A stretch of 63,790 nt of DNA, filler included, from Collodictyon triciliatum (lineage: Eukaryota): assembly GCA_043381765.1 (NCBI GenBank). It is 7 parts of 7 records of this genome, joined end to end, with 100 filler letters (N's around TTAATTAATTAA, not from the genome) between each part and the next. Parts side by side here need not be neighbours in the genome. Positions count along the whole stretch, not along the records: positions 1 to 9,486 come from JBHJMP010002989.1; 6 more parts are not named here. One strand, written 5' to 3'. This document shows positions 195 to 49,045 of the stretch, piece by piece. The translations under genes and the position numbers were made by a program. Position 1 is the first letter of the stretch, and each line of letters opens with the position of its first letter. The notes under the pieces were generated by a model, which saw nothing but the letters and a program-made list of their open reading frames with translations, was not told the DNA's origin and made no database searches.

Positions 195-2072
195 ATGGGC
201 TCAGACGACCGAAGCAGCCAAACAAAGATGCTTGTCCTCCTCGTCCTCTGCATCGACCTTCTCTGCTCAGGCATTTACCTCCCGTTGTTGCCGCTGCTGG
301 CGAAGGAAACCTTCTCGGCTTCCGCGTCGACAGTCGGTGTCATTTTATCGGCTTACCCGGCTGCTCAGTTCCTCACTGCGCCGCTATTGGGTCGCTGGTC
401 AGACTTGTACAGCCGCAAACGGATTCTGATTGTTTGTCTATGCGGCATTGCGCTCAACTATGTCCTCCTTTCGCAGGCGACATCTGTCTACGTCTTAATT
501 GCTTCCAGGTGAGTGAGCCTTGCATATAAGCTTTGATTTGATCCACACAAAGAAAAAAGTATTACATAGAATAGTATTATATATGTGTGATGAGGTTTTT
601 TTATCCCCTCTTTTCTTCGTGTATGCTCCTTTTTTTTTTTTAATTTCAGTTTTGTATGGTTGGTCAGGGCGTTTGCTGGTGCGTTGGGGGCGAATGTGTC
701 CATCGCTCAGGCTTATTTGTCTGATTTGTCAAAGAAAGAAGACCGCACAAGCTCACTCTCCATGACTGGAGTCGCCTTTGCATTCGGATTCACAGTTGGC
801 CCGATTCTTGGAGTAACTTTAGTCTTATTTACTCTTCGTTTATTTCCTTTAATTTTTATTTATTTTTCCGTTCTATTTTTCTCTAAAAATCATTAAATTT
901 GTTACTTTCTTTCCCTTGAGTAAGGAAAGAAATGACCGGGATTGAAAATAATCAAATACTTTTTTGTCTTTCTTCAAATGCATAAAGTATTTAAGTATCT
1001 TTATCCAACTTAGGGGATGTTATCATCTAGTGGTGATTATCAAAAGCCGACCAATATTTCTTTGGTGCTATCCGTACTAAACATTATGATTGCATCATGG
1101 CTCCCGGATTCAAAACCGCAAACACAGCTGGATCAAAAAAATAAGGTCACATAATTTTCTGAAGTATATATTTATACTAAATTATTGGAAGAAAATCTAT
1201 TGCGTAATCAAATGTAAAAAAAAAAATTAACAAATTGCCTTTCAATTTATCTTATGTTCGTAACATAAAGGATTCAAACTTGGTGGAGGGTCTTCGAAGT
1301 GTCACGATTCGAAATTGTCTTTTTCTTCGACTTCTTTTTTCTCTTTCCTTCTATCTTTTCCGAAACTGCCTTCCTATTCTCTTATCATCAACATACCAAT
1401 TATCAGCAAAGCAAAGCGGATATGTTTTATCTTATGTCGGCCTTCTTGCCGGAGCTACGCAAGGTACTTGAACACAGTTCCTTTTCATAATTGATCTGTT
1501 GAATTGATATTTTTTGTTCGAATTTTCTCAAAGTCGTATTGGGCCGATTAAGTCACTTACACAAGCATAAATTTTTATCCATCGTAGGCGGGTTGATGAA
1601 AAGGCTTTCCAAAAAGTATTCTGACGAAGAGATTGTAAAAAAGTCTCTAATCCTTCTCAGTATTTCGCTGTTTTTATGGTCCGCGGCTCAGTCAACAGCC
1701 ACTCTGCTTATCATTCTTGTTCCGATATGCTTTACCATCGGCACAATCACCACATGCTCATCAAGTTATTTAACAAAAATAGCACCACCAACACAAGTAT
1801 GATTGAACGAAATCTCCTCTATCATAGTTGACCTTCAGTATGTATACATCTATATAGTTTTAATTCATCTACTTCCACACGTAGTCGGGCTGGGTTCTGG
1901 GATGGTGTGCATCTGTTGACAGTCTGGCAAAAATTGTAGCCCCGCTAGCAGGTGGAATTATGATCGAAGAATTGGGGTCTGCTTCGCCCGGGCTCATCGC
2001 CGGGCTTCTTTCTGCGCTTGCCCTACTCGTCGGCCTGCAAACGAAGACCAGTCAAAACTAAATCCAAAGTGA
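195..2072 (+). CDS. MFS transporter (DHA1/TetA-like, MFSD9/MFSD10-like), 6 exons
   Basis: Motif A 'LGRWSDLYSRKRIL', 'GANVSIAQAYLSD', 'GFTVGPILG'. Exons ~195-509, 668-813, 1014-1145, 1271-1463, 1589-1796, 1885-2072 join in frame via GT-AG introns. Confidence 0.9.
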
Positions 2073-2190
2073 AAGACTATCCCTTGCAATAGATTGAGAT
2101 AGTGCCAAAAGCACCGCATATGCGCTTTCAAAAGCCAATTACTGGCATCACCCATAGAGCTCCACGAATAAAATAAAAAAAGTTTCCCTA

Positions 2191-2336
2191 TCACACTTCT
2201 TATTGTTAAAACTAGAAGGAATATACCACCTTTCGACTGGTAAACCTGGTGCGCTAGTATCCATGGTCTCACCATTTTTTCACAAGGGTCGCGTAGTGGT
2301 GAAGGCTGCCAGGTGAGACCTGACAGCCTGTTTTTT
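2191..2336 (-). ncRNA. Putative Fanzor omegaRNA scaffold (boundaries approximate)
   Basis: Directly downstream of the Fanzor stop. 10-bp hairpin at 2304-2328; its loop region is complementary to 2265-2273; a second, GAAA-capped hairpin spans 2211-2257. Confidence 0.65.
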
Positions 2337-4235
2337 TTAAAAGAGATGTGTAAGCATATTTTGAAGGATTAAAAGAATTTTCTTGAATATATTTTTAGCG
2401 CTGATAAAGTCCCTTGCCATGAATATACTTTGTTTGGTTTCTGAGCGATTGCATTATTTACATATGAGGCATCTATACAACCTTTTTTTTAATTTCCTTT
2501 CGGTTTCATATATTCCAGTTCTTATTCGCGTTGCAACACATCTTGGAGGTTCTAAATTCGTCTATATTAACTGTTTCAAGACGTTTGGATAGTATTTTTC
2601 GTAATCCTCTTCCGATTGTTGGCATAAAATGCTTCATCTAGGTTTTTCTACTTCATTCTCCATACGCCAGTACAACATCCTTGCCAAATGTCTTTTCGAT
2701 TCGTTCCATAAACAATTGTTCACTTCTTTTTGTATTATCATACTGTCTCCATCTCATCTTTCGAAAAGTTGCTTGTTCATAAAATCTGGAAAATTCTACC
2801 TGGCATCTCGATTTCATAGATACATATTCTCGAATTTTTTCATAATCGAGCGTGCGTGAATTATATTTGCTCGGTTCTGTCTCTAAATCGATTAAAGATA
2901 CTCTTAGTGTCTCAAACTGCTGTTTCTCTTCAAAAGTTATGGCAACAAAAGAAACAGCACTTTGTAGACCTGTTGCCATGCATATCCCTGAATAATTGTA
3001 CTTTTCTTTTTCGTGCAAGAGAATTTTGTGATTTTTAAGAGATTTGCTATCATCTCTTGTTTGGTGTGCCGTGTAATGTAATTTCTTACCTATCTCATCC
3101 ACCATGTAAACCAAATTAAACTCGCCTGCGTCCACTCCAACTACATTTTTTTGTCGCTAATAAAGATAATCGCTCTTCGGAAAGTTCTATATAAACATGT
3201 ATTTGGATATTTTGATTTTATTGGATTTTGAATTTGAAATAGCTTTCTTTTCACACAATAATCACACCGCCGTCTGTTTTTATCATGTATTTAAAATTGT
3301 AGTCTCTTTGATGAAAGACCCTCTTCTTCATTTCAAAGAAATTATCCCATAGTGTCTCTTTGCATCATGATATATTCTTCAGTAATAATTGTTTTCCAGG
3401 CAATACTAATATATCTCTCAATCATGCAGTATCTAGAGTAATATGACATGGTATATTGGTAGCTCTTATAGGGATTGGTTGAAACTGTTTGGCTCTAGTG
3501 TCCTCAAAAATGCGACTCATGTAAATCGGACATGGAGTGTACATATTTGGATTGACCTTGACGTCATATTTGATACCATTTACAATATCGCTGGGAATGA
3601 CACGATTCAAATGCGTTATAATCCATTCTTTATATTGTTCCAGTATTTCGAGTTTCTTGTAGATGGCTTTTTTAACTTTCGTAACCCTGCCTTTTAATAG
3701 CTTCCGTAATATTCTCATATTTAGGAACTGTTTGATTTATAAAGCGCAGAAACCTCTTTACAAAATGCTCCCTTATGTTATTATGATAAGCTGTTAACAT
3801 TTGCTTCACCAAGTACGGTAATACATGAGACAGTTCAACCAATAGGAAAGCGTTCTTCTTGGGACAAAAGGAATCGAAAATCATTGAGATAAGAAGTCAT
3901 CGTGTCTTCTCTCATATATGGATGCTTTTAATCTTGCGAGTCTATCTTGTGAAGCTATTCCGACTGTCTTTAAAGCATATAAAAAAATTTCATCGGTTGC
4001 TGAGAGCTGTTGTGGTTTCAACATGTAACATCTTGCAAACATATAAGTGTCCGTAACCAAGTTATGACACAATAAAAACGTACCGTTGATTTTGTCATAG
4101 TCATCCGGATTCTTCACAATCGACTTGAGAGATGTTTTCACATTTCGATAGTCTAGTTTTACACACATTAGATTCTCAAACTCAAGACGTTTTCTTTTCT
4201 TCGTTTGAAAGTCTTATTTTTACTTTTTCCTTTAG
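2337..4235 (-). pseudogene. Fanzor1 (TnpB-related RNA-guided RuvC nuclease), disrupted by stops and frameshifts
   Basis: Stitched translation gives N-terminal 'VKTSLKSIVK', 'FQPIPIRATNIPCHITLDTA', 'YMIKTDG', RuvC-I 'NVVGVDAGEFNL' (D codon 3130-3132), 'LAYGE*SRKT*MKHFMPTIGRGLRKIL', RuvC-II 'NIDEFRTSKMCC' (E 2557-2559), Zn-finger CCxC...CxxC, RuvC-III 'MARDFISAKNI' (D 2409-2411), stop 2337-2339. No introns. Confidence 0.9.
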
Positions 4236-4936
4236 AAAACTACCAAGTTTTCGATTTTAATAAAACCTTAAGTCTATTAGTAAATTTGATAAAAATAATG
4301 AAAACAACTGCACAAAATCAATTATGTAAAATCAAGCATCTGCCGAGACTTTCAAAATGCGCATTGTGGCAAATAAACACAAAGTTTTTTTTACAAGTGA
4401 TTTGAGACAAAACGCTGAGAGCCCATTCGGCGAGTTCGAAAGGACAGCCGTATAGCCATTGCGACTGAAAGTCAACATATCGGCCACAAACAACATGATT
4501 ACCGCCACAAGTGGGGATAGTATGCTTTTTTGAAATGCATGTTTGGTGGCAGGTTTATAGGGTGGGTTCTGTCTGGGTCAACACAAGGGCTTCTTTGTCA
4601 TTTTTGAATTTTAATGATATTACACAAATGAAAAATAAAATATAAATTGATTATAGGAATAGAATGAGATTATGAAGTATTTTTAACCTTATTATATATA
4701 ATTAACATACTATTATTCAGCTTGTTTCTTCGATTCATCAAAGCTCCTGGTTTCGTCAATCCAGATTTAATTCGATGGTTGTCTGTGCAATAAATTGCTA
4801 TATATGGGTACACTTTTGTTGTATAAAAGGTGTTCTGCCTTGAAAGGGATAAAACCGAGTTTGTCACAACCTTTTTGACGAAGTTTATCCGTTTACAGGC
4901 CGAATGAGACCGAAGAGAAAGGAAGAAAGGAAAAAA

Positions 4937-5100
4937 ATAATCAAAGATCAAAGATCAAAGATCAAAAATCAAAAATCAAAAATCAAAAATCAAAAATCAA
5001 AAATCAAAAATCAAAAATCAAAAATCAAAAATCAAAAATCAAAAATCAAAAATCAAAAATCAATAATCAATAATCAATAATCAATAATCAATAATCAAAA
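4937..5100. repeat. 7-bp tandem repeat drifting ATCAAAG > ATCAAAA > ATCAATA
   Basis: Direct reading of the sequence. Confidence 0.9.
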
Positions 5101-5480
5101 ATATTAGCAATAATAGTAATGCAATAGTTCTAGCAATGCGATATCAATTCGTGTTCACAATAATATTCCACATTTAGATATTAAAACTCAATACTTGTGG
5201 TGCGATGTCAACTTTTATACAAAAATGTAAGCGGTTGTTTACACGAACAAAGTGGTACTTTATTTTAGTGTCCACCCCACATCGAACATTCGCTGCACGA
5301 ATCACAAGGAGCCGAGATAGCATAGCTTGCGCAAACATGATCGCAGTCTGAAGTACACAGAGGAATCTTTTCTCTCACGAGGAGTGAAGCCCAGCCTTGT
5401 TTTTCCTATGTGGATCGAGAGGTGCGCAAACTGACGAAAACTCGCATAGAACCAAAGAAAAAAAGAAAGAAAGAAAGGGA

Positions 5481-7356
5481 ATGGCCGAATCGCAAGCCTC
5501 TGTCTTTGGTTCGCTGGCTTCAAAAACTGTGTTGACCTCGGCCGCTTTGCAGTCCAACGGACTAGAGATGTTGTCCGGCTCGCTTCTCGTCACAAACCCG
5601 GGTAAGAGTTTTATCTTTCTCTTCCATTTTTCTTGTGTTTTTTTTCATTTTTTATTTACTATTTTCCTTACGCCAACTAATACATAACCCGCCAGCAAAG
5701 AATTCAAGTGCAACAATCCCTACTATTTGTCAATTATTTATTATCTGATTCGAATGATCCACCCCGCTTCATTTTCCACTCATGTTATCTTCCCTTCATT
5801 TACTATTTTCTCTCTGGAATGAGGTAGCTGCGCTTCCCAAAGACGCTCTTGACGTTCACGTCCTTTTGCCTTGCGAAACAGCACAGACAATCACACCCGA
5901 GCACTCTTCTGCTATTCTCGAGTCTCTAAGCCCATCTGGTACAGCACATTTCCTTCTTGTGGTCTCATGCAAGCAGAGTGCATTTACCGAGGTATATTTT
6001 TGGGGTGTATTTTTTTTTTTTTAAGAATGACCAAAAGTGCAAAACGAAACTAATTCAATGCCATCCATTTCTTGAGCCTAGGAATGTCAATTGTTCAACT
6101 CAACTTAATTATTCCTAGATGTTGACTCTGGCTGAACTTACCGTCCAATTGTTGGTGGCTGGATTTGTTGATACACGATTTGATGCGATTACACCAGAGA
6201 GCCTTCCAAGTGTTTTGCTTCGAGCTGTGCCCCAGGATGTGCAGGATGCCATTCAAAGCGGTGCGCTCAAATTCGTCCAGGTGGGATGTCACCCTATCTC
6301 AGCAAAGCATAACGGCAGAATAATGTCGCCACCTATGTATTAGTATTAACCTATCAATGGTGACAAGGATATCATTATTATTTAAATCCTTCGATAGCAT
6401 GTCACCTTCGATTTCAACCCTCACCACTTCAAAAATCTATGCACAATCCCCTTCTTTATGCTTTATGGGGAACTCGAGAGCCTTTTTTTTTTTTATTTTT
6501 TTTGAAAACTATTAAAGGAAAGATACATGATAGATAATTAATATGTTTACTGTCCATATAGGGCTCTGCTAAGAAACCTGATTGGGGTGCTGGAGCATCT
6601 GTTCCTCTTCCAAAGAAACAAGTCCCAGCTGGTAATAATCATCACTATTGGTCATTGTATGACATTTTATTCAACTAACATGCAAAATGTATCATGGATT
6701 GATTGTTTTCTTAGGAGCAAAAAATAAACATATATATTATATTCAAGCAGCAAAGAAATGGGCTCTCCCAGCTGATGACTCTGAACTGGTCGACGAAGAT
6801 AGTCTCCTGGATAAGGAGGACATGCTGAAGCCCACCGTTCCCGTAGCATGCGGTTTTTATAAATAACATATAATAAAACTTTCAACATTAAAACTCGGGC
6901 GTAGAAAGAATCATTCATACATCTCGTATCTACTCCTTCCTGCCAGCATTAAACGGACGAACCCCATCATCACTTCACTAAATATGTCTAGGAGAAAAAC
7001 CCGTACGTAAAGCCTGCAAGAACTGCACATGTGGCCTGGCAGAACAAGAGAAACAAACAGAGGAGAAAAAAGTTAGGCTTTCCGCCGAAGACTTACAAAA
7101 CGGCCCGAAATCCAGTTGTGGAAATGTACGAGCGTATTTATTATGTTTAAACCCCCAACCATGCTACCACGTTGTTCGAACCTGTTGCAATATTATGTTT
7201 GCTTTATATTTGTGTGGATATGACCTGTATGGACTTTGATAGTGTTCTCTGGGCGACGCATTCCGCTGCCCTGGATGTCCATATCTCGGCCTGCCCGCAT
7301 TCAAGCCTGGTGAGAAAGTCACACTGGCCGGCTCATTCCTCAGTGATGATGCATAG
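5481..7356 (+). CDS. CIAPIN1: Anamorsin / Dre2 cytosolic Fe-S assembly protein, 7 exons
   Basis: Spliced C-terminus '[20 protein letters not shown]' and '[31 protein letters not shown]', the diagnostic Dre2 Cys motifs. Confidence 0.95.
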
Positions 7357-7631
7357 ATAATCCCCAACCAGCGCATGTGCACAAACGAAATCATGACCAT
7401 AAATATCCCTCCCCCAAAGAAAAAAAAAGAAGGAAAACAATAACAATATCTAGTATAAATGGGTTGAATAAGATGACTTAGGGCACTATCTACTTACAAA
7501 AAAAAAAAAATCCGACTTATTTTATTTTATTCTCTTACGTAAAACACTGACTTTGCATTCAATTGTATGTGGTTAAAAAGAAGAGACCATAATTTAGAGA
7601 TTTTCAGGGAAACAAATGGCTGGGCTCTGAC

Positions 7632-9233
7632 TCAATCGGAAGAGTAATCAGCGATGTAGAAATGCATGATGAGAACACAACACAACGACATCGTAAAGAG
7701 AAGTGTCCGTTTCATCGGAGCCCAGTGCCCAAGCTTTTCTGGGTCCAGAAGCTGCTTGTAGAAAGAGTATCCCAACGAAATCACAACTCCCGACGCCTCA
7801 AAGAACAACTGGACAGCAACCTGCAGCAGACATTCACTGTAGCTGGATATCAGTTTGAATTGAGTTGAGCTGGGGATGAGTCGATGCAGGAAGAAAAGCA
7901 AAAAGGGAGCCAATACCAAAGAGTAGAGCTCAGATGTAATGTCATCCAGGATGCATCTTTCTCGAAAAACAATTGCATCTCTGACATAGTCGGCCACGTT
8001 CTCATCATCAGAACGAAGCTGTGCCTGTAGTGACGGCCTTCGAGCGTCTTCGCCTTGTATCTCACTCATTGGTATGATGGAGACAAGTCTCTCTCTGCCT
8101 CTACAGGTGAAGTAATCCAAGTACACGCGCTCACACAACAGGCTTAATCGGCACAGGCATTTCATCCTTATCTTGAAAGAGAAGCATAGGACGAATTCAA
8201 GCATGACATTTAGCATATTTGCAACTACAAACTCTACCGACAATGGCGTTTTTGATGCAACGTTAGAGATCAAAATTCTCCCAATAAACTGGATATAGTG
8301 ATTGCTCATTTTGTTGATAATCAGCCTTTTTTCCATACCCTCCGCAGGTAGTCCGAGAACTACTTTGTACTGAAACCATTTGGCGAGGCTGAAGCACACA
8401 GGAAAGATAATGAAACGGTACACTACTTGCATTAAGAAGGTAGCTTTTACATAGACCGGAAGAATATTGAAGAAAACAAAATTAATAAACATATAAAACC
8501 CTACGATGCCTTTAAAAATAGCTAAAGGTGAGCCGTCTTTGGTCAATTCGAAGTACTCCTGTTGAGTATCCGAGAGTACATCCAGTCTTGGGGTTTTCGA
8601 AATCAGAAAGAAACCAAAGCCCATAAATGACATTTCCATAGCATTGATGATATTAGAAGCGAAGGGAATGGAGCGGATGGACGGAGTCATCATGAAAATG
8701 ATATTTATAACGAAAGCCGGCGCAATCGCCGCCATCAATGCCATTCTAGAGAATTTGAGGCTGAATATGTGCACCATAGTAAGAGTAATAGATCCCCAGA
8801 AAAGAAACAGCAGCACGGCGTGAAGGACGTCGACGTAAAGAACGTCATGAATTCGGTGAAGCGTTTCAGGTGTCATTACCAGAGAGGGGAGGTAAAACAT
8901 TAGCGACGTTATTATGACAGCAGCTAGGGTCGGCAAGGTTTTTCCTATTACACGTAATTGGCAAAGAAAAGCCTCTTTGAAACATAATGAGAAACTCAAA
9001 CGACTTTCTCTTGCATTGCTGGTGTTATCCCCTGCACTGAATAACGAATCTCTTCTATCTATTTCTTGAACAACGCCTGCTCCTGTCTCTCTTGGGCTGG
9101 AAGCAACGGATTCACTCAAATTATATGGTGTCCTGGGCTGGTCAGAGCCTGGTATGATGATGGCGGGCTGTTCGTTTTGTGATGGCCCTATAAAGCCCGA
9201 CTCCATTGATGCGGTTTCGACTATGTCCATCAC
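7632..9233 (-). CDS. Uncharacterised multi-pass membrane protein (533 aa, intronless)
   Basis: Long uninterrupted ORF with a hydrophilic N-terminus and about 10 hydrophobic segments. Family not recognised. Confidence 0.75.
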   Translation of the reverse strand: MMDIVETASMESGFIGPSQNEQPAIIIPGSDQPRTPYNLSESVASSPRETGAGVVQEIDRRDSLFSAGDNTSNARESRLSFSLCFKEAFLCQLRVIGKTLPTLAAVIITSLMFYLPSLVMTPETLHRIHDVLYVDVLHAVLLFLFWGSITLTMVHIFSLKFSRMALMAAIAPAFVINIIFMMTPSIRSIPFASNIINAMEMSFMGFGFFLISKTPRLDVLSDTQQEYFELTKDGSPLAIFKGIVGFYMFINFVFFNILPVYVKATFLMQVVYRFIIFPVCFSLAKWFQYKVVLGLPAEGMEKRLIINKMSNHYIQFIGRILISNVASKTPLSVEFVVANMLNVMLEFVLCFSFKIRMKCLCRLSLLCERVYLDYFTCRGRERLVSIIPMSEIQGEDARRPSLQAQLRSDDENVADYVRDAIVFRERCILDDITSELYSLVLAPFLLFFLHRLIPSSTQFKLISSYSECLLQVAVQLFFEASGVVISLGYSFYKQLLDPEKLGHWAPMKRTLLFTMSLCCVLIMHFYIADYSSD

Positions 9234-9397
9234 TCTTGCAACCGAACTGACAAGATTAGTCTAAGTTATAGTCCATATTCATTTGAATAAATCGCTTTTT
9301 TTTATGTTTTATGTGCTTATGATATTTTATTTATTAGATTTTAATTAGTTTGTGCTGTTTTTTTTGTTTTTTGTTTTTTGTTTTTTGCTTTTTTTTT

Positions 9398-9486
<89 letters not shown>

Positions 9487-15813: not shown

Positions 15814-16880
15814 TAAGTACTCAATACATACGTGCTCAATAATATAATGGAAACTGACATCAAGCCCTCGTGTGTCCCAGCTCCACCCGGCTCCATATGC
15901 TTACCGACCCGCTCATCCAATGAAGAGTAACCAAACTGTAGGCCGGGGTGAATTTGAAGGGCTATAAGCCCACATAAAGCTATTCTTTTTTTTCTTCTGT
16001 ATTTGATATAGCAGAGTTCATAATATTTGGATTAACAAGGGTGAGTAAAGTGTGTACGGCAGAGTAGATGGGGACAAGACAGATTATTCGGGAGCTAAGC
16101 CCTATCCAAGGCAGTGTTTCGCCACTAAATGGAGAAAAAAGCCTTCGGGCCAGTTGCAAAGTTATTTGGAGTGGGCTCCCTTCGGAGCAAAAGGCTTTGC
16201 AGGCGGAGAGCCGTCTATCTGGGTGTGGAAAATATGCATAAATTCATAGTTTAGTTCGAATTGGACACCAAACACCATTGACAGAGCCGAAAAGTTACAC
16301 GGTTTATTATTTGTTTTTATATTAGAAAGGGGCACACCAATCGCAAGAAACCCCGACACTATATCTTCCAGAAAGATGCATATAATCCAGAAATAGGATG
16401 ACAACAACGGCTCTTGTCCGTTGGTGCTTGTTTTCTCCATCCAGAATCCAAATTCCTGTCGCGGAAGGGTTTGAGCGTGCAGGTTTGGAGCCGGAAAGGG
16501 GCACCACCTTGCCAAAGACATCCGAACAAGCGAACTTGCCCGTTCCTCTCGATTGGTTTCTCGAGAATTTCGGACGATTCCACGGCGCGAAAGACAGAAT
16601 TTCAGAGTATTTTCCAGAGCGAAAACAGTCGCTGCAATTACCCAATGAGCGCATCAACCTACTCAGGCAGGAAGCAGCGGCACCTACACAATTAGTAATA
16701 GAAAAGAACCAACCGCGTTGCGCAACGAAATGATTGAATGCTCATGTTCAGCTATCTACATTGCACAAGCGTATCATCACACCACCAAAGACACCCACGC
16801 TACGCAATCAAATCTGTCTCGTCAAATCAGCTGAGCCTCACAGAAGCCAACCCAACCCAGACCGAGTCGCAAAGTCACGC

Positions 16881-17744
16881 ATGTCACACACAAACCCCGA
16901 CGCACCCAATCTGACTTCCCTGCTGGCACGCCTCGGACGGATGCTGCAGCAAACAAGACGTCGAACAAGCCCTGTCATCAAACTGGACACACCCACAGAA
17001 GCATCCCTCTCATGCCCGTGTCTGCATTCCTCGACCGACTCAGACCTGTCAGCAACTTCATCAACACTCAAAAAGCGCTCCTTGTTCAAATACTATTCAC
17101 GCCTCCTCGACCATGAGCTCTGCAAGTTTGCACCGGGTAGCCTTCCGGGCCTCTATGCGCCATGCAACCCGACCGAGCAGAGCTTTGCAGCCGTCACAGC
17201 AACTGCCGAATGCGAAGGCCTGTCGATTAATCACGCCCCACTTCGAGAGTTTGTGCGCAACCTGCGTCGACTGCGCATTGTGGAGGAAACAGAGCTTGTC
17301 GTCTCTGTGGTCCTGCTGCAGCGTCTGGCCTCGCTCGAAGCCTTGTCTCCTGTCATGGGCCACTCGGCCGCCCCACTTGCCATGGTCTGCATCATGCTGG
17401 CCGCAAAGTGCCTTCAAGACCGCCCCCGCTCAAACTCGGTCTTTGCGTCCCTCTCGGGCTTGCCTCGGCCGCTGCTGAACCGTCTCGAGGTTCATGTTCT
17501 GCACGCCTTGCACGGTGCCCTTCATGTCACTGCCCAGGAATATCGGCTCGCTGAAGAGCTGCTTCAGGAACACATTCACGAGCGGATTCTGCAGGCCCGA
17601 GAAAGCAACAACACAAATTCACTCCCAGATATCTTTGCTTGTGTCCATGCGAAAACAAATGTGTGTCTGAGCCTGTCCTATTCCCCCTTGGCGGAAACGA
17701 ACACCCTCCCTCTTATCCTCCCTCCCAGACCCAGGGATACATGA
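16881..17744 (+). CDS. PHO80/P-U-type cyclin-like protein (intronless; start uncertain)
   Basis: Cyclin-box pattern 'LVVSVVLLQRL...MVCIMLAAKCLQDRPRSNSVFASLSGL...LNRLEVHVLHALHGALHV...EY'. Confidence 0.85.
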   Translation: MSHTNPDAPNLTSLLARLGRMLQQTRRRTSPVIKLDTPTEASLSCPCLHSSTDSDLSATSSTLKKRSLFKYYSRLLDHELCKFAPGSLPGLYAPCNPTEQSFAAVTATAECEGLSINHAPLREFVRNLRRLRIVEETELVVSVVLLQRLASLEALSPVMGHSAAPLAMVCIMLAAKCLQDRPRSNSVFASLSGLPRPLLNRLEVHVLHALHGALHVTAQEYRLAEELLQEHIHERILQARESNNTNSLPDIFACVHAKTNVCLSLSYSPLAETNTLPLILPPRPRDT

Positions 17745-39295: not shown

Positions 39296-42200
39296 TTATT
39301 GAAAGAAAGAACCCCATTGGAAGGCCAGCTCTGCATCGGCCTCAACACCCCAGCCATTTCGGTAGCACTCAGCGACGATTGGAGCGATGAAAGGAAACAT
39401 GCGGTCCCCATCCATTTTCGCATCTGCGTATTCGAGTATGACAGCGAAGGCCTCTTTGTGCCCGGCTTGCGCGAGAGCTTTCAGTTTCTCAAAGTCTCCA
39501 TCCTCTCCGTAGTGCTTCGATGCGGCAGGCACATCTTTTGCAGTTCCCCATCCATACTCATAGCATGCAGCAACAAATGGAACTGCTTTTGCGTACACGC
39601 GTTCCTCGCATTCCAGTATTTCCGAAAGACTCTTCAAACATTGAAAGGCTTCTATATGACCTTTTTGAGCCATCGCCACCAAGCCAGCATAATCTGGGAC
39701 CCTGGCCAGATATTCAGATGCAACTTTAATGTTTCTCTCAACACCCCATCCATGCTCATAGCACTCAGCAAGAGCGGCTACGGCATTTGGGTTAGCATAT
39801 TCCCCATCTACTTTGCTCTCTGACAATTGTCGAAGTATAACTAGTGCTCTGTCATCTCCAGCTTTGACATAGTTTTGTAAAGCGCCAAAATTTTGGGATA
39901 TTTCGAAGGACTTCAGTTTCCATAGTAGAGCCTTCTCTTCATCTTTCTGTACACCCCACATACCTTCGTATAATCTTGCCACAGCATCAGCCTGAAATGC
40001 TGTTGGATTTCCACTTTCACAGAATTCTATGAAATCATGGTCGAATGAAGTGGCTCCAAGAGCAAGAAGTGCCCATTTGTTATGGCTGTTCAAATGCAAA
40101 ACTTGCCCTATTTGCATATTCCCTCCTATTAAGTCATGAGAAAATTCTTTGTGCAGAACAGTCGGTTGTGGTTGGTAAGACAATTTGCCTTCGTATGTTT
40201 CATCTATAAAGGCAAGCTTAAGATCTTCTTTCACGTCGGCACCTTGAAGAAATAATCTTCCATCGATGGTTTGAGATACACAGAATTTATGCCCGATGAG
40301 GAATTCGTATGATGTAATGTCCCATATATATGCATTGCAATCATCACCACTAGAGACTATCCAAGGAATTCCATGAGGACTTTCAATAAAAAGAAGCTTA
40401 TAGACTGAATTCAAATGAACTTTCTTTATTTCGGCAACAGGGAATTTCGTATCCGAGTCCCATAGCACAATTCTATTATCAACTCCTCCGGTAACTATCC
40501 ATCGTTCCCCACTTGGACCTTTCATGAAGCATACAGAAGTGAGTGAGGCACTGTGACCTTCAAGTTTCTGAAGCAAGCACATGTTTGCAAAGTCCCATAT
40601 GCATATTGTCCTATCAAAACTTGACGATGCAATTAAAGCTTCTCCTTTTAGACCCTGGATTTCACAGATATTTGAGATGGACTCATCGTGCCCCTCCAGT
40701 ACTCCTACTTCAGTCATTTTAATCAGGTCCCAAACAAAAATTTTAGCTTCGTCTCCGGCAGAAAATAAAAAATTACTCTCACTAAAACTTTGAATTTGAA
40801 CCATACACTTGACTCTAGCTTTATGCCCTCTCAAAACATTTACCACGACTCCTGATATCAAATCCCAGATACGAATAGTACAATCCCAACTCCCAGAACA
40901 AATCCACATTTTTCCATTAAGGCCTTTCAGGACGGAAATACAAGTAACGGCGTTAGTGTGTCCAATGAAGGTTTTAATTTGCAATCCAGAGAATAAATCC
41001 CATATTTGGACGGATTTGTCATGACTACCAGAGGCCAGCCAATATTCCCCCTCTGGACCTGCAGCGAAGCACAAAGCGGACACACGCCTGTTGTGACCAA
41101 GTAAGGTCATGCGTTTTTTTCCGGAAAAAATGTCCCAAACGCACACTGCACCATCGGCGCTTCCAGTGGCCAGCCAGAATTCTCCATTTGGGCCTCGAAT
41201 ATGACAAAGACTGACTACGTCGTCATGTCCTCTAAATTTATGAAAAGGAATCCCAAAATTCACTTTATGCATATTTGATGCATTGAAATTGCTATCACCT
41301 AGACAAGAATGGGAAAAATTGACAGAAGCAAGGTTTGCACCAGTAAAATTTGCTCCGTGAATGATTGAGTGACTCAAATCAGCACCAGGTATCTTGACTG
41401 ACGTAAAGTTGATATACTCAAATGAAACCTTCATAAAATTAAGAAAACTGATAGAAATGCCGGATGCTAAGCTCTTACTTTCATCATTTCTAGACAAGTG
41501 AATAAGTTTGAATAAAAATTGGATAATTAATCTTCGATTCAAGTTCTCAATTTTCGGTAAATTTTCTACTTGTTCAGATAAAAAATTGTAAATCTCGGTA
41601 AAAAAGATTAGGTCTTTGTCTTGCCCAGAGGCATGATAGCTTTCTGAAAGATATTTGCAAGACTTTAAGGATTTAAGGTGGTACCAACCAAGATTTTTAG
41701 CATAGTAATTCTTCATACTTATCCAAAATTCTATAGCTTCATTGAATTTCTTCGATTCAGAAAATATATTACCCACTCGAACGCATAGAGCCCAAATGCT
41801 GAAATGATTGGCATGATGCTTTTCTTGTAAAATTGAAATACATGCACGATATAGATATATCTGAATTTCGATTTTGTTGACGGCTCTCATGTAGTCAATT
41901 ACTCTAATTGTTTGGACTATGTCTTTTAGTGCCATTTTTGAATTAGTTTGTTTCCTTATTTTGATGGCATCTTCAAAGCTCTCTATGGAATCTTCGTATC
42001 TGAGCATAATTGTAAGATAATAATTTTTTTTAAAAGAAAAGGAATACGATTTTAAGAAATTCGGAACGATATGAATAACTATGATTTCGACCTATGAAGC
42101 TCGAAGTTAACCCGGCCGATATCTTCTAGAGAGCTGGCATACTTGATATCATCACATCCATAGCAGACTTTAATGATTTCTTGTGCTTTTCTGTACCATG

Positions 42201-48013: not shown

Positions 48014-48035
48014 AATTTCTATGGACGAGTAAGAT

Positions 48036-48108
48036 GGGGTCGTAGCTCACATGGTAGAGCGCCCGCTTCGCATGCGGGAGGCAGCGGGTTCGATTCCCGT
48101 CGGCTCCA
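48036..48108 (+). tRNA. tRNA-Ala (anticodon CGC)
   Basis: 73-nt cloverleaf: GGGGTCG/CGGCTCC acceptor with G3:U70, D arm GCTC/GAGC, anticodon stem CCCGC/GCGGG with loop TTCGCAT, TTCGATT T-loop; T5 tract at 48114-48118. Confidence 0.97.
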
Positions 48109-49045
48109 GATAATTTTTCGGTGGCAAATGTTTGTTTTTTTAGTTTGACGGCCTGTGCTGCAGTATTTATCAGACGCGGCGTTCCACCTGTCGCACATGG
48201 CAACTCTACAGGGTTATCGCGATGCTTCCTGCAGGTTCTCATGCGTGCGAAGGCCGCGTTTTGCTGTCGGCCGAATGTGCTGATGCCGTATTTCCTTCGC
48301 CAGAATCCGCGGCTGCATTTGTTTGGAGAAGCTTTTCAACTCGGAGGCAAGCGCGGCCGAGTTGCGTAACGGATGCAGATAATGTGGACTTGGCGTGGGA
48401 GTGTGTGTCGGGCCATGTTGGACAAGTGGCCACGCTTTTTCTTTGGTGGCGCTTCGATATATAACACACGCACGTCAGATTCGTTGGCGTTGGTTTCCGG
48501 CTGTTTGCGGCCTGGTTCAAAGGGAGCCGTGCTTGATAATAATACTGGGAAACAGAGATGGACGCCCGCCAGCAGCGAGAGGCTTGAGTAAGGGTTGCAC
48601 AGGGGCTTATTCGAAAGACCGATAATGTCCGAGCTATATATTTGTCTTTTTTGATAGTGATAATGATAATTCAAAAAAAAAAAAAGCTTAGCTGAAAATG
48701 GATGCACGGAAAGTGAAGTCAAACAAGCATCACAACCCAAAACAGAAATCATATATCGTGAAGGCTCTGTTGTTTTGACACCCTACAAGCCATTTTCTTT
48801 TCTTTGCGTGTCTTTCTTTCATGCGGCAGCATGAAACATAAATAGGAATACATGAAAAAATGGTTCGTGAATTTTGGTGGGTGTCTGTGCGAGTGTGTAT
48901 GGGCGATGGGCAGCTGGATAAACCAGGAACCAACTGACAAGCACAACATATTTCGCCTTAGCAACTATTTCACTGAACCAACCATCTACCCTTGACAACA
49001 TCCTTTAGAGGGACCGAATCTTAAGCCAATCGATAATAAACCGGC

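Follow-up and report, generated by a model that had tools for sequence, protein, structure and literature searches.

Fanzor nucleases tested so far encode their guide RNA between the end of the gene and the right end of the element (PMC10432273, PMC10530073), and the guide itself consists of the 14-15 nt that lie beyond the scaffold (PMC10432273). The omegaRNA of SpuFz1 from Spizellomyces punctatus (PDB 8GKH; PMC10432273), which serves a Fanzor1, has two stems joined by a short linker; its last stem closes on the element end and no pseudoknot appears in the available descriptions (PMC10432273, PMC11423790). Its sequence is listed in Table S3 of PMC11423790. The SpuFz1 scaffold of 75 nt follows the stop codon, and its elements have 30-nt terminal inverted repeats and intact genes (PMC10432273, PMC11423790), whereas at the locus analysed here the scaffold would be about 108 nt long and would overlap the gene, no such repeat was found and the gene is dead. 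The omegaRNA of GtFz1 from Guillardia theta (PDB 9CER) overlaps the last 17 codons of its gene (PMC10432273), and its loci are reported to be without inverted repeats (PMC10432273, PMC11423790). It is 150 nt long and has four stem-loops, the first of 7 pairs (PMC10432273, PMC11423790), unlike the two predicted stems, the first of 10-12 pairs, found in this study.

The omegaRNAs of TnpB and Fanzor2 (ISDra2, ISXfa1, ApmFz2) take the same position in the element and contain a pseudoknot that joins a loop to the five bases immediately preceding the guide (PMC10711439, PMC11832414). A pairing of loop and downstream sequence has also been proposed for the present locus, the protein of which is a Fanzor1. 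In the available text of four reports, Fanzor1 RNAs lack the TnpB/Fanzor2 pseudoknot (PMC10432273, PMC10711439, PMC11832414, PMC13565253), and no account of a knotted Fanzor1 RNA was found in the accessible parts of the literature searched. The nearest relatives for which DNA is available are Fanzor1 elements of giant viruses and metagenomes (L001-L119; among the viral ones, 36-47% against P0003, an intact relative), which are probably Mariner-type elements like PGv-1 of PMC3627910. Their RNA overlaps the gene end. In 44 of these remoter relatives the element terminates at or close to GGTG|TA, and in 28 of the 44 the final stem is closed by the T of this TA.

The window, that is the whole stretch of DNA analysed, comprises 63,790 nucleotides of Collodictyon triciliatum (GCA_043381765.1), eukaryotic DNA with introns whose pieces are parted by runs of N. 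The element described here is multicopy, in a eukaryote with introns. Our analysis suggests that the tract at its 3' end is most probably what remains of the omegaRNA scaffold in a Fanzor1 copy that is now dead. Features of the locus are listed in Table 1.

Table 1. Features of the Fanzor1 locus, in positions of the window.
Feature	Position	Strand	Basis or remark
Broken Fanzor1 gene	2280..4204	-	native end near 2282-2271; alignment to P0003, PDB matches, motifs
Premature TAA, taken for the gene stop in the earlier note	2337..2339	-	six related proteins with KKQAV read past it
Stem-loop 1	2303..2329	-	12 pairs and 3-nt loop (or 10 pairs and 5-nt loop); within the last codons of the original gene
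Loop-spanning 9-mer GGUCUCACC, proposed pseudoknot strand	2312..2320	-	loop letters vary among relatives
Predicted long stem 2	2225..2300	-	minimum-energy fold
Distal hairpin of predicted stem 2	2238..2274	-	pairs GGUGAGACC (2273-2265) with 2249-2238; most pairs at about 0.8
Second hairpin of the earlier note	2211..2258	-	unsupported; starts at 2258, not 2257
TA after GGTGG, putative element and scaffold end, possible target-site duplication	2224..2225	-	GGTG|TA of relatives; sister-copy depth
Putative 15-nt guide region (flanking DNA), uncertain	2209..2223	-	unpaired in the fold; 14-15 nt rule

The gene upstream of the tract, named a Fanzor in the earlier note, is by its sequence a Fanzor1. 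Its C-terminal part (P0001, with X at stops) matched three Fanzor1 structures and one chance-level chain in a PDB search, and a profile of six relatives matched the same three structures, with E values between 1.6e-53 and 9.2e-42; no other match appeared up to E 1. Tested for Fanzor1 against Fanzor2 or TnpB, the significant PDB matches are these three Fanzor1 proteins only. The intact relative P0003 (648 aa), which is 58% identical to the window copy over 640 aligned residues, has GtFz1 (9CER) as its best PDB match (E 2.1e-28). Catalytic-site motifs are readable in the window copy as GVDAG (DPG in P0003), DEFRTSKMCC and RDFISA; the first motif is thus of the DPG type and a glutamate directly precedes the zinc finger, as in the RuvC triad described as a hallmark of Fanzor1 (PMC10711439, PMC13565253). 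The TDG motif of the WED domain, named as a further hallmark together with a size of 600-700 aa (PMC10711439, PMC11423790), occurs in the window copy as IKTDG, and P0003 with its 648 aa has the corresponding size.

Compared with P0003, the window copy has nine stops and six frameshifts. The last stop (2282) sits at about the end point of the relatives, hence eight of the nine stops are premature, and the copy cannot make a Fanzor1 protein. No second Fanzor copy was found in the window by blastn or tblastn. In the earlier note the tract begins immediately behind the Fanzor stop, but the codon in question, TAA at 2339-2337, proved to be one of the eight premature stops. The KKQAV motif occurs in six of 342 proteins, all of which extend beyond the position of this TAA, continuing for 7-19 codons after the lysines of the motif. 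Since relatives read past 2339, the gene once included stem-loop 1 as well as the 5' strand of predicted stem 2, an overlap of the kind described for GtFz1. On the other side, the 3' end of the element faces an intron-containing membrane transporter gene on the plus strand (~200-2061, ending at 2059-2061), which is MFS-like (Pfam MFS_1, E 0.006 for the last exon, below the cut-off).

The hairpin GGCUGUCAGG-UCUCA-CCUGGCAGCC reported for the minus strand at 2328-2304 is present, and the tract is GC-richer than the ORF (45% versus 34%), as had been observed. The fold of stem-loop 1 (2329-2303) reaches -20.9 kcal/mol with a z of -6.3, and none of 500 shuffles folded as well. Among 41,972 windows of 34 nt on both strands it ranks first; the runner-up hairpin (-17.3) lies within a tRNA-Ala gene, tRNA-Ala(CGC), at 48035-48109 on the plus strand. 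The structured tract lies between the 3' end of the gene and the presumed right end of the element, the usual place of Fanzor guide RNAs, and it folds better on the strand of the gene: for 2331-2224, z was -4.2 with none of 1000 shuffles as good, and on the opposite strand -2.17 with 25 of 1000 as good.

The same minimum-energy structure was obtained for four alternative 3' ends: stem-loop 1, two unpaired bases and a long stem at 2300-2225. This predicted stem 2 consists of ACCACU/GGUGGU (6 pairs), a 3x3 internal loop, CGAC/GUCG (4 pairs), a 13-nt bulge and a distal hairpin of 12 pairs; in the predicted ensemble, the ten pairs nearest its base form with probabilities of 0.9-1.0. By itself stem 2 has a z of -1.79 (53 of 1000 shuffles as good), and folds without stem-loop 1 are borderline, at z -1.5 to -1.8. 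Most of the folding signal of the tract comes from stem-loop 1, and stem 2 is therefore a prediction and not a finding. Values of z near -3 are not rare in this region: among 54 minus-strand windows of 130 nt in 1901-4680 (30 shuffles each), seven fell below -3, and the ORF contains four of these seven. A second hairpin had been drawn across 2257-2211, and it can indeed be drawn, but at -8.8 kcal/mol its z is -0.35 and 164 of 500 shuffles folded as well; it is not supported in the form drawn, and when the whole tract is folded its pairs have an ensemble probability of 0.0.

Conservation of stem-loop 1 was assessed in three clusters of relatives from their protein tails, for which the codons nearest to the window were chosen; silent positions are invisible to this comparison. 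On this basis the changed pairs still pair in three of three cases in the P0003 cluster, in two of two in the P0146 cluster and in one of three in P0147, which breaks two pairs at its early stop; only 11 of 60 possible single changes would keep a pair. A fourth relative is a sister copy, 30 letters of which form a loose end in run X3. By-hand comparison gave five differences from the window, of which one keeps its pair as G-U, one breaks a pair, two fall in the loop and one lies outside. One pair passes from G-C in the three protein clusters to G-U in X3 and A-U in the window. Overall, one two-sided change, several one-sided changes and three breaks were counted, and each of the four relatives has its own differences in the loop letters. 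A simple stem-loop would leave such a pattern, which is read here from thin data by a procedure biased towards the window. The earlier note described the pairing of the tract as looking intact despite the decay of the ORF. An intact stem does not demonstrate selection after the death of the gene, because the probability that a 10-bp stem stays unbroken by neutral drift alone is 0.43-0.11 after 5-13% divergence.

Stem-loop 1 might be real and yet serve the mRNA, in 3' end formation or stability, or be an accident, with the rest of the tract a chance folding of GC-richer DNA. Stem-loop 1 is the only part that is clearly beyond chance by itself, ORF windows also reach z below -3, and the RNA model of the distant relatives (see below) misses the tract. 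Against such an origin stand the encoding of the guide RNA at this very place in the Fanzors tested so far (PMC10432273, PMC10530073, in their available portions) and the retention of the stem across relatives although the encoded residues change. We consider the mRNA or chance explanation improbable and prefer a guide scaffold.

The exact 9-nt complement between 2320-2312 and 2273-2265 pointed out in the earlier note exists. A complement of this length covering the loop arose in 11 of 3000 shuffles, and one anywhere in the hairpin in 24 of 3000, both figures being post hoc and uncorrected. The scaffold might use it in an H-type pseudoknot with an 8-pair outer stem and about 7 loop pairs, or in an alternative fold adopted while ribosomes are passing stem-loop 1. 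Besides the perfect match, the strand order and spacings speak for a knot, as they fit the H-type. With the partner of the window held constant, the P0146 cluster keeps nine of nine knot pairs by way of G-U and X3 keeps eight of nine (by hand). Knots of such a kind can escape folding programs, according to the available text of PMC11832414.

Other observations speak against the knot. The partner strand 2273-2265 is held in its own hairpin, a competitor of the knot, within predicted stem 2, a stem missed in the earlier reading, and lies at least 40 bases upstream of any candidate end, unlike the strand used in the TnpB/Fanzor2 knot. The loop differs in four of four relatives, and P0003 and P0147 keep just seven of nine knot pairs; all these counts assume the partner strand of the window. 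In the nested ensemble the 9-pair helix has a probability of 0.0, and forcing it costs 15.7 kcal/mol (-30.8 versus -46.5). A pseudoknot carries a penalty of +7 to +10 kcal/mol. Summing the parts (-32.0 for the rest, about -14 for seven stacked pairs, and this penalty), the knot comes out roughly 7-10 kcal/mol worse than the nested fold. The pseudoknot is thus unlikely, and knot and ribosome-triggered fold taken jointly we hold to be very doubtful. Three alike motifs in the tract (2320-2312, 2303-2298 and 2246-2239) suggest a local duplication, and the two-stem scaffold that we prefer leaves the 9-nt complement unexplained.

Read mapping narrowed down where the sequence shared by the element copies ends. 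Depth in run X1 was 112 in 2234-2329 versus 2.8 in 2138-2233, and in run X2 it was 9.2 versus 0.48. Sister copies are many, and the fall of depth in the bin 2233-2138 shows that their shared sequence fades here; the element end lies somewhere in about 2200-2233, in a bin that does not separate 2224 from 2212. Predicted stem 2 of the window closes on GGTGG|TA at 2226/2225-2224, in the manner of the viral and metagenomic relatives. By analogy with them, the scaffold would measure about 108 nt and close on GGTGG|TA, and the guide would start at 2223.

The alternative ends are CTAG at 2212 or a position near 2200. In that case the scaffold would be right and the element would reach farther out, ending Helitron-like in CTAG|T (2212) or near 2200, with the small UACCA/UGGUA hairpin as a terminal signal and the ACUAG/CUAGU pairing of the earlier note as a closing stem. 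The window contains CTAG followed by T (2215-2211), 12 bases past this weak hairpin (z -2.2, equalled by 17 of 500 shuffles), an arrangement that fits a Helitron1 end as given in the available text of PMC3627910, and the residual depth in 2138-2233 suits an end at 2211-2212 equally to one at 2224. Helitron1 elements are marked by 5'-TC, a subterminal hairpin, CTRR-3' and a transposase; of these marks, the CTAG|T and the weak hairpin are seen here. The corresponding fold is 7.5 kcal/mol worse, however, with a probability of 0.0; the Helitron-linked Fanzors described in the accessible literature sit in Helitron2 elements (PMC3627910, PMC10530073), and the closest relatives with DNA terminate in GGTG|TA. 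We therefore regard an end farther out as unlikely, though worth keeping in mind, and retain GGTGG|TA.

A Mariner-type element would have inverted repeats at its two ends and a TA duplication; the TA after GGTGG is present at 2225-2224, and no left repeat in 4200-9486 exceeded shuffled controls. No inverted repeat of any of the candidate ends rose above these controls in 4200-9486, nor was a duplication detected, and the left end of the element was not found either; two candidates, 4523-4548 and 4891-4904, were rejected as chance-level. Upstream of the element, a 7-base unit is repeated in tandem over 4931-5100 (AAAAATC followed by AATAATC). Other observations in the window are a 533-aa ORF without Pfam match (7632-9233, minus strand), a cyclin-like protein (16734-17744, plus strand) and a WD40 plus Sel1 protein (39296-42007, minus strand).

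A total of 162 loci of viral and metagenomic relatives were collected for RNA comparison, of which 125 had the C-terminal motif, 103 an end motif, and 47 were left after near-duplicate removal. L117, L122 and L123 belong to another type and were excluded, which gives 44 in A4; the core model further omits L004 and L085 (42 in A5). The core helices of the 44 elements covary strongly: 10 of 11 pairs show two-sided change, a result reached in none of 500 shuffles. The 3' ends of L001-L119 thus contain a covarying RNA core of their own (model R1, 44 Fanzor1 elements), in which one helix is nested in another, the TTGATTTTAC motif is conserved and the final stem closes on GGTG|TA; loop-to-loop pairing in this viral group shows no two-sided change in four of four pairs. 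Unlike these elements, the window has no detectable copy of their core helices, as both the covariance model and the sequence profile of the 42-44 relatives fail to detect the tract. Homology at the RNA level is hence unsupported. The best protein identity to this group is 63%, over part of the C-terminal region. Likenesses to viral ends seen by eye (2231-2204 and 2150-2111) were found by neither profile and were rejected.

Close-family DNA was absent from the 80 of 237 viral loci and the 80 of 112 metagenome loci that were kept, and further locus searches gave two viral loci and one prokaryote locus, all distant from the close family. DNA patterns for both hairpins had no match in viral contigs. 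Rfam gave three chance-level matches in 1900-4600 and none in the tract, and a bacterial scan of 2050-2450 found no terminator-like site.

Taken with the design of SpuFz1, a two-stem scaffold without a knot is plausible, since that RNA has this very design as far as it is described (PMC10432273, PMC11423790). While the ancestral element was live, its 3' end would have given rise to an RNA that shared the final 17-19 codons with the gene and formed two nested stems without a pseudoknot, in the order stem-loop 1 (2329-2303), a 2-nt linker and long stem 2 (2300-2225). The last strand of stem 2 would have been the terminal sequence of the element, and some 15 bases of flanking DNA beyond it would have formed the guide, leading the nuclease to cut the empty site. 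This function is attributed to the tract from its family.

Hints of transcription came from run X1, in which 388 contigs lie on the element; for 302 of these the likeness is below 95%. One X1 contig corresponds without difference to the last exon of the neighbouring gene and starts exactly at the splice site 1885, and X1 depth is nil in the intron preceding that exon. X1 thus behaves like spliced RNA of Collodictyon triciliatum, its status as RNA being our guess; none of the runs is recorded as RNA. Depth in X1 drops to 16 in 4250-4345, and several joints begin at 4239-4240, one of them reading GT..AG on the minus strand. This dip and these joints suggest an intron at 4240-4345 (minus strand) in the leader of family transcripts; the DNA run X3 has no dip. 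These data weakly hint that members of the Fanzor1 family are transcribed and spliced, and they concern neither a small RNA nor the window copy. A repeated leader at 4346-4700 has X1 depth of up to 552, compared with about 200 in the gene, and is perhaps shared with gene-less copies. An open stretch of 77 residues (4551-4321, minus strand) ends in FICHNAHF, which presumably resembles a motif of protein-primed polymerases; this peptide had no Pfam match, and Atlas gave low scores only. The freshwater and wetland metagenomes X2, X3 and X7 contain 151-base pieces with 0-2 differences from the window copy in 2811-4049, so the organism of the window or a very close one is present in those habitats.

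Guide RNAs from gene-less copies, named ghost omegaRNAs, work with SpuFz1 according to the available text of PMC10432273, and by analogy it is possible that the guide of the window copy is used in trans. It is highly improbable that this Fanzor1 lineage has a guide RNA with two alternative folds around one 9-nt strand, which would pair either with the loop of stem-loop 1 or within its own hairpin and would act as a knot regained in Fanzor1 or as a switch coupled to translation of the overlapping codons, with dead copies supplying such guides to live nucleases. If it were real, such a pseudoknot or switch would be at odds with the published account that the knot was lost in Fanzor1, and the evidence leans against it. 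As a relic, the tract adds little beyond one more Fanzor1 guide scaffold. Its practical use is that a likely scaffold is now marked for a lineage that has intact natural members, P0003 and P0013 (648 aa).
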